From positions 20,586,001 to 20,646,000 of the forward strand of contig CM097885.1 of NCBI GenBank assembly GCA_044892525.1: a stretch of 60,000 nt of DNA, read 5' to 3'. The notes under the pieces were generated by a model that searched no databases, was not told the origin of the DNA, and saw nothing but the letters and a program-made list of their open reading frames with translations. Below, piece by piece: positions 16,982 to 32,330 of this stretch (positions are counted from its first letter, which is position 1; each line of letters opens with the position of its first letter). The position numbers and the translations under genes were made by a program. Origin of the DNA: Schmidtea polychroa. Lineage: Eukaryota.

Positions 16982-18246
16982 AGTAGTATGATTGGGGCCA
17001 TCCAGGCCAGGGGCCCTCCAGGCCACATATACCCCCCCCCCGGGAAAATTTTTTTTTTTAAATAAAAGGTCAAGGTCATTTATTTTTTTTTTTTAATTTT
17101 TTGTTTTAATTAATTGGCCGGGATGGCCCCTACTTTTTTTCATCCCAAAAATTAATGTTCCCGCCAACGGATTTTATTGGACGATACCTCATCTTAAAGC
17201 TCAGTCCAAGACCTTTAGAATGAGCTATAGGTATCTTATATATCTTTAATAGTTTTAATGTTATTAACAATTGATGACCACCATCTTTTCAACGTTAAAT
17301 TATTATTATTTTCCAAAATATTATTAATTGGCCGGGAGGGCCCCTACTTTTTTCATCCCAAAAATTAATGTTCCCATTATCCGAATTTATTGATCGATAT
17401 CTTATTTTGAAGCTTAGTGCAAGACCTTTCGAATGAGCTATTGAAGGTATCATCATCATTAACATCGGCAAAGTTATTAACGTTTTCCCGAGACCATTTT
17501 TCAAGGTCATTTATTATTTTCAAGGTCATTTAATTTTTTTTCAAGGTCAAGGTCAAATTTTTAATAAAAGGTCAAGGTCATTTATTATTTTCAAGGTCAT
17601 TTTTTTTTTATAATTATGTGGCCGGGAGGGCCCCTACTTTTTTTCATCCCAAAAATTAATGTTCCCGCCAACAGATTTTATTAATCAAACACTTATTTTA
17701 AAGCCCAATGCAAGACCTTTCATATGAGCTAATGAAGGTATCATCATCATTATTATTGACAAAGTTATTAACATTTTACCAAAAATCATTTTCAAGGTCA
17801 TATAATTATTAAGTGGTCTGGCGGGCCCCTACTCTTTTTCATCCCAAAAATTAATGTTCCCATTATCCGAATTTATTGGACGATACTTCATCTTAAAGCT
17901 CAGTCCAAGACCTTTCGAATGAGCCATAGAAGGTATCATCATCATTAATATTAACAAAGAGAGTGACTCACCCAATGACTCACCCAACGATGTCTAATAT
18001 TTTTAGAACGATGACTCATCAAGGTCAAGGTCAAATTTTTAATAAAAGGTCAAGGTCATTTATTATTTTCAAGGTCATTTATTTTTTCAAGGTCATTTAT
18101 TTTTTCAAGGTCATTTAATTTTTTAATAAAAGGTCAAGGTCATTTATTATTTTCAAGGTCATTTATTTTTTCAAGGTCATTTATTTTTTCAAGGTCATTT
18201 ATTTTTTCAAGGTCATTTATTATTTTTTAAGTTTTTAGTTTCTAAG

Positions 18247-18304
<58 letters not shown>

Positions 18305-18416
18305 ATTATAATTATTATATACTCATAGTCTATCCGACAAGATATTCTGTCCCCCTATGGGTACTGCACACAAATGTACTACTCTCACTCAACAAGTCAC
18401 AAGGGTACTGTTCACA
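16982..18416 (+). repeat. Left terminal inverted repeat with four internal GGCCCCTAC..CATCCCAAAAATTAATGTTCCC units, TCAAGGTCA arrays and (ATT)n
   Basis: Reverse complement of 30873-32330; ORFs 17295-17510 and 31796-32011 translate identically. Confidence 0.95.
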
Positions 18417-18482
18417 AAATTACTGGTAAAAATATTCAAGACAAAACTTTCTAAATTCTAAATATTATTCTTTAAATATACA

Positions 18483-18764
18483 CTAAAATTTATTAACACA
18501 TTCACATTCATCATCTCCACAGTTCATAACATTTTCAACAACATGATCTATACAATCCCTATATACACACGGTTCAGTATCCGTAAATTCCTCCATAGGT
18601 TCATCAATTTCTTGAATGCTTTCCTCATCATCTTGAGTGTTTTCTTCATCTGTTTCATCAAATTCCGAATCTTCACTCTCTGCTACCCAGTCTATATTTA
18701 ATGCGTTTGTAACAGATAATATATCCGCCATTTTCACACCAGATATTTCTGCTAATTTTTCCAA
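18483..18764 (-). CDS. Small acidic protein with Cys-rich C-terminus, function unknown (5' end uncertain, possibly spliced)
   Basis: Open 93-aa frame, D/E-rich, CVYRDC..CGDDECEC. Confidence 0.45.
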   Translation of the reverse strand: MEKLAEISGVKMADILSVTNALNIDWVAESEDSEFDETDEENTQDDEESIQEIDEPMEEFTDTEPCVYRDCIDHVVENVMNCGDDECECVNKF

Positions 18765-18937
18765 TAAAAAGTTTATTATAAATTCTAAATATTAAATAAT
18801 TCGATAATTAACTAATCATATTAACCTTTTTCTGTAGTCATTATTAGTATTTTAAAACTATAGTATATATTTGTTTATAGAAAATATAGAATATACGCGA
18901 AAACAAATATGACTAAATACATTTATTAAATACAACA

Positions 18938-19357
18938 TTAAAATAACTGTGAAAGTCTAGCAGACATAATTTTCCAAATTGGAGAATACACATCATTATT
19001 ATCAACTTTATATCCTTGGATTGTAATTGATATATACCAATTTTCGTTTTCTTTGAAACTGATTTCATCAAAGGAATCATAAAATTTTGCATATCGGTTG
19101 TTGAAAAATGCATTTTGATTGCATGATAGATTCGTATTCAACCTTTTGAAAACATCATCTATGGTTTTAATATCTAACATTGAAAGCGTGCCGGTTAAGA
19201 ATTGAAATTGGGTAGGAATTAGCTTGATCGGTGACACCAATTTCATATTGATTTCTTCTTTTAAAAAATACATTTTGTAGTTGTGGAACATTTGAACAGG
19301 TTGTACAAGTTCTGGAACTACTTTTGGTTTTTCAGTGCTTGAAATTTTCTTGGTCAT
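18938..19357 (-). CDS. Putative OB-fold ssDNA-binding protein (T7 gp2.5/NCLDV-like)
   Basis: Intact 139-aa ORF with upstream TATAAAAA and CCAAT; C-terminal WYISITIQGYKV...SPIWKI pattern. Confidence 0.45.
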   Translation of the reverse strand: MTKKISSTEKPKVVPELVQPVQMFHNYKMYFLKEEINMKLVSPIKLIPTQFQFLTGTLSMLDIKTIDDVFKRLNTNLSCNQNAFFNNRYAKFYDSFDEISFKENENWYISITIQGYKVDNNDVYSPIWKIMSARLSQLF

Positions 19358-19465
19358 TGTGAATTATGATTAAAATGAAATGGTACAGGGTTTTTATACC
19401 TATGACTATTGTTTATCATCCAATCAGATTGCAGTATGTTTTTGTTTTAATTGAATGATAAATAA

Positions 19466-19930
19466 TTAATTAAGTGATAATAAAAAATCTAAAAATTCTT
19501 TTCCTTCAATTATTGATTTAATTTCAGATATGATATTATCAACTATATATTTGTAATCAATATTTTTTATTCCAAGAATTACTATCTTACCGCTAGCGAA
19601 TATATTTACACACATAGGGTTATATTTTATATATCTCAAAGCTGGAAATAATTCTGGTTCATAAAAGCATGGTATTAATTTAGCTAATTTATTTAAATTA
19701 CAAGAAAAACCTATATCGGAAGTTACGGTTATCGATTGTATTTCTAAATCATAAACATTATATTCACTAGCTTTGATTATTTCCTTACACCCCATAATTC
19801 TACATTTACCAGTTTTGAAATATATTATTGGATATTTATTACTTCTATTGATAAGTTGTTTTGGTTTCCCTATTGGAAATACCATTTTTGATACATCAGT
19901 TTTTGCCCTGTAATTTATATTTGAAAGCAT
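19466..19930 (-). CDS. Divergent TATA-box-binding protein (TBP)-like protein
   Basis: Two TBP repeats: LSNINY..IIYFKTGKCRIMGCK and EIQSITVTSDIGFSCNLNKLA..FYEPELFPALRY..VNIFASGKIVILG; intronless. Confidence 0.9.
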   Translation of the reverse strand: MLSNINYRAKTDVSKMVFPIGKPKQLINRSNKYPIIYFKTGKCRIMGCKEIIKASEYNVYDLEIQSITVTSDIGFSCNLNKLAKLIPCFYEPELFPALRYIKYNPMCVNIFASGKIVILGIKNIDYKYIVDNIISEIKSIIEGKEFLDFLLSLN

Positions 19931-20034
19931 TTTAATGAAATAATTTTAAAAACTTTGATATATATAGGTATTTAAAAACAGAGTTCATTTAAATTATCAA
20001 TATAAACAATAATTATATAGTTTAAATTTAAAAA

Positions 20035-30145: not shown

Positions 30146-30224
<79 letters not shown>

Positions 30225-30296
30225 TTAATAATAATAATAAAAGTTTAATGGGTTGTATATGTGTGTAAAAAATATTTTAGGTTTTCACTAATAATG

Positions 30297-30367
<71 letters not shown>

Positions 30368-30730
30368 TCCCGCGCGTGTTAATACTTTAAAAGAAAATAT
30401 TGAAAATTCAAAAAATAATAATATTTATGCAAAGCATGTGCAATAATTATGTCTTTGTTAATTAAGTAAACTTTAGTGTCAAAATAAGTTTTTAAAATAT
30501 TTTTAAATTTAAAATACCGCAACTTAATATATTTTTGTTCTACCCCTTCATTGATTTAAGTTGGTCAGAATTTAATAATAATTATATTATACCCTTTGAG
30601 ACATGTTGAATGTGAGTAGTACACCTTGCTACCATTACCCATATGAGCAATACCCATAAAGGGATAGAATATTTTGTCGGATAGATTAAGAGTATATATG
30701 ATAATAATATTCCCGGTGCGCGTAATAATA

Positions 30731-30824
<94 letters not shown>

Positions 30825-30860
30825 TGAACTTGTATTTGAAATAATAATAATAATAATTTA
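29840..30860 (+). repeat. (AAT)n microsatellites with repeated aatgggttgt(at/gt)gtg..aaatattt..ggttttcac units
   Basis: Visible tracts; they produce the spurious poly-Ile/Leu ORFs. Confidence 0.9.
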
Positions 30861-30872
30861 CGACATATTGAG

Positions 30873-30984
30873 TGTGAGCAGTACCCTTGTGACTTGTTGA
30901 GTGAGAGTAGTACATTTGTGTGCAGTACCCATAGGGGGACAGAATATCTTGTCGGATAGACTATGAGTATATAATAATTATAAT

Positions 30985-31042
<58 letters not shown>

Positions 31043-32330
31043 CTTAGAAACTAAAAACTTAAAAAATAATAAATGACCTTGAAAAAATAAATGACCTTGA
31101 AAAAATAAATGACCTTGAAAAAATAAATGACCTTGAAAAAATAAATGACCTTGAAAATAATAAATGACCTTGACCTTTTATTAAAAAATTAAATGACCTT
31201 GAAAAAATAAATGACCTTGAAAAATAAATGACCTTGAAAATAATAAATGACCTTGACCTTTTATTAAAAATTTGACCTTGACCTTGATGAGTCATCGTTC
31301 TAAAAATATTAGACATCGTTGGGTGAGTCATTGGGTGAGTCACTCTCTTTGTTAATATTAATGATGATGATACCTTCTATGGCTCATTCGAAAGGTCTTG
31401 GACTGAGCTTTAAGATGAAGTATCGTCCAATAAATTCGGATAATGGGAACATTAATTTTTGGGATGAAAAAGAGTAGGGGCCCGCCAGACCACTTAATAA
31501 TTATATGACCTTGAAAATGATTTTTGGTAAAATGTTAATAACTTTGTCAATAATAATGATGATGATACCTTCATTAGCTCATATGAAAGGTCTTGCATTG
31601 GGCTTTAAAATAAGTGTTTGATTAATAAAATCTGTTGGCGGGAACATTAATTTTTGGGATGAAAAAAAGTAGGGGCCCTCCCGGCCACATAATTATAAAA
31701 AAAAAATGACCTTGAAAATAATAAATGACCTTGACCTTTTATTAAAAATTTGACCTTGACCTTGAAAAAAAATTAAATGACCTTGAAAATAATAAATGAC
31801 CTTGAAAAATGGTCTCGGGAAAACGTTAATAACTTTGCCGATGTTAATGATGATGATACCTTCAATAGCTCATTCGAAAGGTCTTGCACTAAGCTTCAAA
31901 ATAAGATATCGATCAATAAATTCGGATAATGGGAACATTAATTTTTGGGATGAAAAAAGTAGGGGCCCTCCCGGCCAATTAATAATATTTTGGAAAATAA
32001 TAATAATTTAACGTTGAAAAGATGGTGGTCATCAATTGTTAATAACATTAAAACTATTAAAGATATATAAGATACCTATAGCTCATTCTAAAGGTCTTGG
32101 ACTGAGCTTTAAGATGAGGTATCGTCCAATAAAATCCGTTGGCGGGAACATTAATTTTTGGGATGAAAAAAAGTAGGGGCCATCCCGGCCAATTAATTAA
32201 AACAAAAAATTAAAAAAAAAAAAATAAATGACCTTGACCTTTTATTTAAAAAAAAAAATTTTCCCGGGGGGGGGAGGGGGTATATGTGGCCTGGAGGGCC
32301 CCTGGCCTGGATGGCCCCAATCATACTACT
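30873..32330 (-). repeat. Right terminal inverted repeat
   Basis: Reverse complement of 16982-18416, differing mainly in homopolymer and repeat-unit counts. Confidence 0.95.

Follow-up and report, generated by a model that had tools for sequence, protein, structure and literature searches.

The stretch of Schmidtea polychroa DNA considered here is 60 kb long (60,000 nucleotides, called the window throughout). It contains a Polinton/Maverick element of 15,349 bp at positions 16982-32330, which has genes for a virion and for integration and lacks the protein-primed DNA polymerase pPolB. It is proposed that this element probably belongs to a multi-copy, non-autonomous Polinton family, which would be replicated in trans by pPolB from an autonomous relative resident in the same host. 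The proposal is favoured because pPolB is absent, all seven relatives with enough sequence past the protease carry it, the non-coding filler in its place predates the insertion and is itself multi-copy, the coding variants are mostly synonymous, and a polB-lacking precedent has been described. Devoid of the pPolB that marks an autonomous Polinton, the element would behave as a defective viral genome that depends on a helper and yet bears the cost of its own capsid.

In such a family, an ancestor would have lost the pPolB block. Non-coding DNA, made up partly of repeats of the inner end of the terminal inverted repeat (TIR), would have filled the slot, with the length held near 15 kb, presumably a packageable size. 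The excised linear DNA would keep its AGTAGT ends and be primed by the pPolB/terminal protein of the helper. New copies would then be inserted by the element's own integrase, with a target-site duplication (TSD) of 6 bp, and may be packaged in virions made from the genes that it carries. Helper dependence had been suggested in a first-pass annotation made from the letters alone. It stands as the most likely mechanism, although an inferred one. The bipartite and host-replication readings offered in that annotation are unsupported.

Termini of the element and the missing polymerase

The outline of the element is as follows:

16976-16981, plus strand: left target-site duplication AAACTA, from the sequence
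16982-18416, plus strand: left TIR, starting with AGTAGT, from alignment
25293-30872, no strand: non-coding filler of 5,580 bp, multi-copy in public runs, in the slot of the relatives' small open reading frame (ORF) and pPolB
30873-32330, minus strand: right TIR, terminating in ACTACT, from alignment
32331-32336, plus strand: right target-site duplication AAACTA, from the sequence

The perfect 6-bp TSD and the near-identical TIRs of 1.4 kb reported on first pass were confirmed. AAACTA stands on both flanks, the element begins with AGTAGT at 16982 and ends with ACTACT at 32330, and a global alignment of the two TIRs (~1.43 kb) contains a single substitution, at the inner edge. Inside the TIRs its gaps amount to 25 columns, every one of which lies in homopolymers or in 18-bp tandem units. 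The left TIR holds internal repeats of ~166 bp and 18 bp, a (TTA)n run and, at its inner end, a motif of ~90 bp. Long TIRs, AG/AGT-type ends and a 6-bp TSD are the termini of a Polinton/Maverick, and with these ends kept and an essential enzyme, pPolB, missing, the element has the make-up of a non-autonomous Polinton. Intact vertebrate Mavericks have a constrained size of ~17 kb ± 10%, and the terminal repeat is described as a protein-priming feature (PMC8097293). At 15,349 bp, the present element sits at the low edge of that range.

Between the TIRs, the minus strand has three genes (an acidic ORF of 82 aa, an ORF of 139 aa and a TBP-like gene of 154 aa), and the plus strand has seven, in the order ATPase, 162-aa ORF, integrase, 355-aa ORF, 120-aa ORF, major capsid protein (MCP) and protease. 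The gene order matches that of the relatives L021, L002 and L006.

The first-pass annotation had recognised no pPolB or helicase between the TIRs, and this was borne out by directed searches. The pPolB frames of seven relatives found no remnant in a tblastn search of the region behind the protease (25290-30900). The best E was 0.18, from the four long frames, with nothing lower from any frame, and a short N-terminal pPolB paralogue reached 0.03 at best. As a positive control, decayed pPolB copies that lie in the window outside the element were matched by the same probes, with E from 1e-143 to 1e-8. A pPolB profile scored at most 6.8 bits in the filler. The maximum over 20 shuffles was 6.1, the non-polymerase core genes gave 7.0, and the decayed copies in the window reach 242.5 bits. 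The profile of the small post-protease ORF scored 3.5 in the filler, which is inside its shuffle range. With Pfam, no helicase, primase, PolA-like or other family was found in the six frames of 24880-30900, and TBP alone was matched in 18300-20040. The longest stop-free stretch in 25365-29800 has 108 codons, lies on the minus strand and has no Pfam match. A heavily spliced gene of a new type could still escape these searches of the filler; an intron-split or decayed pPolB was considered there and rejected by the tblastn and profile results. As far as the sequence tells, the polymerase block is gone and has not decayed in place.

Relatives were gathered by a scan with an MCP alignment, which gave 70 loci in metagenome contigs and 3 in genome contigs. 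pPolB is present at all seven loci with at least 2.4 kb past the protease; six have it downstream, on the strand opposite, and L071 has it upstream. L010, with 1.5 kb past the protease, also shows it. Of the 20 loci with at least 600 bases beyond the protease, 15 have a small conserved ORF after it. The nearest relatives of the element have a Beta-type pPolB with an endonuclease VII/HNH-like insert. Pfam DNA_pol_B_2 detects one of the seven pPolB frames of the relatives, four long ones of which bear the endonuclease VII-like insert. Because most of these polymerases escape DNA_pol_B_2, the relatives' own frames, and not Pfam, are the proper probes.

Two further features were seen among the relatives. 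L021 has a gene for a ubiquitin-conjugating enzyme at 225-722 on the minus strand (E 1.7e-12), and two tandem minor-capsid-like genes are present in L021 (5610-7684), L019 (1423-3475) and L020. In the window itself, two decayed pPolB genes of the endonuclease-VII-bearing type lie back to back at 5701-8300 (minus strand) and 8224-10191 (plus strand). They are 67% alike over 297 nt, and no protease, capsid gene or small ORF was detected beside either.

Age, abundance and constraint of the filler-bearing form

The slot behind the protease is filled rather than shortened. In three relatives, the corresponding block is 3.7-4.6 kb long up to the point where the long pPolB frame begins, 5' exons being left out, and from the protease stop to the right end of the element there is a gene-less half of 7.0 kb (25293-32330), which folded back on itself would give 14 kb. 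The window has six copies of the ~90-bp motif from the inner end of the TIR, all of them in the element and four in the filler, where none would be expected:

18316-18407: left TIR copy
25904-25991, minus strand: internal copy
27724-27821, plus strand: internal copy
29586-29684: internal copy
30570-30698: internal copy
30882-30972: right TIR copy
29572-30872, plus strand: degenerate repeats of the TIR inner end, i.e., the motif copies at 29586-29684 and 30570-30698 with (TAA)n arrays

AGTAGTA, the terminal heptamer of the element, is found inside three of the six copies, namely both TIR copies and the one at 29586-29684. In a comparison over 50 bases, the two TIR copies do not differ from each other, and the internal copies agree with the TIR copy at 86-94%. 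Since the copies in the filler are more diverged than the TIRs, the filler predates the last copying of the ends. The motif ages support, independently of the read data, the view that the element probably inserted in its present form. The same claim of the first-pass annotation is further backed by the presence of the filler in many variant contigs in four public runs.

That annotation had also described 25.3-30.8 kb as decayed cargo and repeats. Repeats are indeed there, but the region contains, in addition, multi-copy DNA, the motif copies, a spliced-looking unit and a short match to the RNA of the signal recognition particle (SRP):

28440-29500, plus strand: spliced-looking non-coding or decayed unit with intron-like pieces at 28464-28510, 28823-28866, 28965-29000 and 29235-29282
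29187-29230, plus strand: match of 44 nt to the 5' Alu domain of SRP RNA, below the Rfam gathering score

The four intron-like pieces at 28.4-29.5 kb are 36-48 nt long and are accompanied by an internal duplication of ~81 nt. Five donor sites (one nested) were counted in this region, as against three or fewer in 200 shuffles, a pattern that was defined after the region had been viewed. No protein homologue was found for 28476-28820. A Pif1/Helitron-like remnant at 28.5-28.8 kb was dropped, having no Pfam match and no homologue among proteins of 63-202 aa. The SRP-Alu-like 44-mer scores 28-30 bits against a gathering score of 70 (E 1.9e-4 in a scan of the whole element), keeps all pairs of the model and runs directly into an intron-like piece; the element also encodes a TBP-like gene. 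A full SRP RNA gene was rejected, as the 5' 44 nt alone match and the rest of SRP is unmatched. For the inverted motif copies at 25.9 and 27.8 kb, a decayed fold-back was likewise set aside (z 0.2 against shuffles). None of 15 pairings tried exceeded z 1.2, and no stable structure was seen in the ~90-bp motif (z -0.3 to 0.4) or in 29186-29510 (z -0.4). No tRNA was found. In IMG/VR, the terminus and ~90-bp motif patterns had no matches, no relative of the MCP was found, and three distant contigs with pPolB and integrase were present.

The gene region is present in 19 public runs, with small shares in X7-X15. Four of these, from three studies, were mapped on 18420-29800 in 30 bins: 14 core bins, four bins with the acidic, SSB-like (SSB, single-stranded DNA-binding protein) and TBP genes, and nine filler bins without the motif, the three motif bins being excluded because copies of the motif accumulate in them. 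In each of the four runs, every one of the 30 bins has coverage. The ratio of filler to core in median summed depth is 0.91, 0.88, 0.51 (run X1) and 0.43 (run X3, a metagenome), and that of filler to the acidic/SSB/TBP bins 1.28, 1.49, 0.96 and 0.75. Contigs of X1 have mean depths of 1,400-10,000 at nine listed filler sites and 3,600-8,900 at 12 listed core sites, with eight long divergent pieces listed at a depth of 34-50. The median depth in X3 is 86 at eight listed filler sites and 93 at 11 listed core sites, one uncovered site of each kind being excluded. The depth is taken to show no more than that there are very many variant copies of the genes as well as of the filler. With the filler covered in four runs at a depth of the same order as the capsid genes, the filler is, by the evidence at hand, neither private to this locus nor a misassembly. 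A private deletion or misassembly here, beside sister copies with pPolB, had been named on first pass as refuting its claim.

The genes also appear to be under constraint. Among the 40 variants listed of 879, 20 are coding, and 16 of these are synonymous, whereas 23% would be expected from the observed spectrum of changes (p 1.5e-7). TBP is an exception, three of its five listed variants being non-synonymous.

Weighing of the explanations and known systems

Several points count against a multi-copy family replicated in trans. One insertion with these ends was seen, and no helper that has them. Summed contig depth is not equal to copy number, and one of the four runs may be the source sample itself. 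No contig bridging the protease and the filler is among those listed, and the mapping is blind across the (TTA)n run at 25306-25364, directly behind the protease. The 20 coding variants come from 40 chosen by the tool; variants of sisters that have pPolB may be among them, and the constraint may therefore be older than the loss of pPolB. In X1 and X3, the filler has about half the depth of the core, so pPolB or other DNA may accompany the capsid genes in many of their copies. Gene-less palindromic elements could have the same filler. A related account, considered rather unlikely, is that of a rare or single recombinant, whose left 8.3 kb would derive from an ordinary pPolB-bearing family and whose right 7.0 kb (filler plus TIR) would derive from one arm of a palindromic satellite that has the same ends but no genes. 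Such a recombinant would have transposed once with a helper, without forming a family. The halved filler depth (0.51 in X1, 0.43 in X3) agrees with it, as does the junction bin, the shallowest of the 30 in all four runs, and the fact that every relative with enough sequence carries pPolB. However, site 25464, 170 bases past the protease stop, is itself multi-copy, with nine contigs at a mean depth of ~3,300 in X1 and a depth of 48 in X3, where the TBP contig has 27.5. That TBP contig is matched by the filler contig in X3 (27.1), the AT-rich TBP bin is no deeper than typical filler bins, and no strong loose end at the protease-filler junction is seen among 24 listed of 7,261. Misassembly, or a deletion at the locus after the insertion, is highly improbable. 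Many (TAA)n runs and repeats lie in the region, and no listed contig spans the stretch, but the slot holds 5.58 kb in place of the 3.7-4.6 kb of the three relatives, the motif copies of the filler are far more diverged than the TIRs, and all six copies in the window lie exclusively inside the element.

The excess of synonymous changes in a genome unable to replicate itself may also be explained by an obligate two-part polintovirus, in which this family contributes the virion, the integrase, SSB and TBP, and pPolB comes from a partner that has the same ends and no capsid, neither being complete. The present genome would then be the high-copy virion/integrase part, padded with filler to packaging size and kept under purifying selection since its partner has pPolB but no capsid, and the gene-less palindromes would be fold-back satellites of the filler half. 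The two pPolB relics, 7-11 kb upstream and free of protease, capsid gene and small ORF, are in line with this. Further, pPolB adjoining a TIR without integrase has been reported at 10 loci in C. elegans (10.1101/2024.01.15.575659), and the segmented bidna-like viruses have common termini (PMC8363768, PMC8502044). Yet no partner segment was seen, the relics are decayed, 67% alike and without a match to the TIR of the element, and its close relatives are monopartite. A two-part genome is unlikely. It is quite improbable that pPolB is no longer needed, i.e., that the element spreads by integrase-driven excision and insertion along with host replication, or by an unrecognised replicase. The integrase is intact, and viruses without a recognisable replicase, such as anelloviruses and an adabscovirus, have been discussed (10.1101/2024.03.25.586562). 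Nevertheless, no frame capable of encoding a replicase is left, the longest stop-free stretch being that of 108 codons. The element keeps its SSB-like gene and also the AGTAGT repeat that protein priming would require at the ends, and near-identical TIRs beside far older internal motif copies fit a replication that copies the ends. Replication in trans by a helper's pPolB remains the favoured explanation.

The element resembles Polinton/Maverick elements (adintoviruses) in its AGT-type TIR ends, 6-bp TSD, integrase, ATPase, double jelly-roll capsid and protease (PMC8502044; 10.1101/2023.08.22.554363). It differs from its Polinton/Maverick relatives in the lack of pPolB and of the post-protease small ORF, and in its 5.6 kb of non-coding filler. 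Its integrase and protease have intron-like pieces, whereas the Maverick genes of vertebrates and nematodes are described as intronless (PMC8097293; 10.1101/2022.07.12.499685). The closest precedent comes from butterflies. polB is missing from two polintons of Pieris mannii that have LINE cargo, and in a second group of polintons it is replaced by a gypsy element. Both kinds seem to have remained active; the authors leave the mobilisation of these elements open (bioRxiv 10.1101/2025.02.07.637071, 2026 version for the last point). Like the present element, they are TIR-flanked, without polB and apparently active. However, the loss there is tied to LINE/LTR (long terminal repeat) cargo and is described for two copies or for a single group. 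In the present element, non-coding DNA with repeats of the TIR end occupies the slot, the contig depth points to very many copies, and the coding variants are mostly synonymous.

Bidnaviruses and the Vesanto virus of Drosophila have a related pPolB and split their functions over segments with matching termini, and are thus the model for a bipartite reading (PMC8363768, PMC8502044). Unlike the element, they have ssDNA, a parvovirus-type capsid and no integrase. Polinton-like and MELD viruses (PMC8502044; PMC5499653) have, like the element, a virion module without pPolB. They carry a helicase or another polymerase, whereas none was found in the element, whose nearest relatives are pPolB elements. 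In the literature outside subscription papers, Repbase records and bioRxiv supplements, no high-copy polB-less family padded with non-coding DNA was found, and there is one direct precedent for the loss of polB. The accessible text of 10.1101/2023.08.22.554363, PMC11131425 and 10.1101/2022.07.12.499685 contains no polB-less, filler-padded case.

A high-copy, young family with everything but the polymerase is a natural complementation experiment. If the proposal is true, it would show that pPolB and the terminal protein act in trans and which end sequences suffice, and also whether capsid size limits genome length, the filler having 5.6 kb and the lost block about 4-5 kb. Should the constraint on the capsid genes persist once pPolB is lost, virions would have to be important for spread within the host lineage. 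Polintons are defined by pPolB together with integrase, and to our knowledge their mode of replication has been inferred and not yet shown. Families such as this one would be overlooked because surveys often require both pPolB and integrase (10.1101/2024.01.15.575659).

Genes of the element and its surroundings

The genes between the left TIR and the filler are listed below:

18483-18731, minus strand: acidic ORF of 82 aa, from the ORF list; Pfam names no family
18938-19357, minus strand: ORF of 139 aa, predicted OB fold, SSB-like, from a structure model and structural comparison
19466-19930, minus strand: TBP-like gene, 154 aa (Pfam TBP E 1.8e-15)
20035-20673, plus strand: A32-like packaging ATPase (Pfam Pox_A32 E 2e-7)
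20687-21175, plus strand: basic conserved ORF of 162 aa, labelled core-protein-like from position only
21237-22292, plus strand: retroviral-like integrase with a C-terminal chromodomain (Pfam rve E 2.7e-8)
22238-23305, plus strand: candidate minor capsid protein, 355 aa, from position and homology to relatives
23298-23660, plus strand: conserved ORF of 120 aa ahead of the MCP, from the ORF list and relatives
23657-24880, plus strand: double jelly-roll MCP, 407 aa, from a structure model and Foldseek
24909-25292, plus strand: adenain-like protease (Pfam Peptidase_C5 E 1.2e-6)

The structure model of the 139-aa ORF has a pLDDT of 91. Its top four fold matches are CP312R of African swine fever virus (ASFV; Z 7.2, rmsd 4.6, 125 aligned), a DUF2815 phage protein, the Enc34 SSB (Z 6.8, rmsd 3.2, 104 aligned) and the T7 SSB gp2.5 (Z 6.6, rmsd 3.0, 104 aligned). 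Together they span Z 6.6-7.2, rmsd 2.8-4.6 and 101-125 aligned, and a Z below 8 is taken as non-decisive. Foldseek gave nothing at E ≤ 0.001 for this ORF, and the ESM Atlas gave no usable match. The SSB label of the first-pass annotation is therefore kept as a resemblance in fold to viral SSBs, but the gene is no replacement replicase, since the pPolB-bearing relatives L021 and L002 have it too. The TBP-like gene, with 98 homologues, occurs in the pPolB-bearing L002, L021, L059 and L071 and is a lineage trait. As both genes are found in relatives that have pPolB, they do not replace the polymerase, and on this comparison they would be inherited accessories and not a stand-in for it.

The virion and integration genes named on first pass are present, i.e., ATPase, integrase, MCP and protease, but two of them are not the uninterrupted ORFs described there. 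The integrase frame is open and holds an in-frame intron-like piece of 42 nt (21625-21666), which corresponds exactly to the 14 residues missing in the relative L019. The integrases of the two are 66% identical. The protease has an intron-like piece of 36 nt (24914-24949) after the fifth base of the gene, common to nine of the 11 relatives examined, two pairs of these nine being near-identical; L008 and L054 read straight across. The minor capsid and core ORFs are conserved in relatives, while their names come from position or homology only. The candidate minor capsid protein has no Pfam match and is ~28-35% identical to relatives over most of its length, in the same place. The ATPase is 70-75% identical to those of the nearest relatives. 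The MCP, modelled with a pLDDT of 83, matches the MCPs of an iridovirus (E 1e-15) and of mavirus (E 1e-13) in Foldseek and has no sequence match in the PDB.

A host IscU/NifU-like gene at 4700-5260 on the plus strand (NifU_N E 3.4e-17) has, by eye, intron-like pieces of ~45 nt, sized like those of the element. The insertion target at 13800-16981 resembles an older, decayed Polinton-like relic. It has no Pfam match, its integrase-like match at 14.0-14.3 kb is weak (E 0.012-0.014), and ATPase-like words were seen by eye at 14.5-14.8 kb. Beyond the right end of the element, 32931-36921 is a second, decayed stretch of retrotransposon-like nature. Frames like gag, protease, reverse transcriptase and RNase H were recognised there by eye, the integrase match is weak, and an inverted repeat of 89 bp is present at 32931-33019 and 36543-36631. 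A RING-finger ORF lies at 46653-47135. Further on, a long Ty3/gypsy-like element at 49632-59468 on the plus strand carries, ahead of its protease, a MATH domain and a fusion glycoprotein of the Monjiviricetes type (E 7.5e-63).

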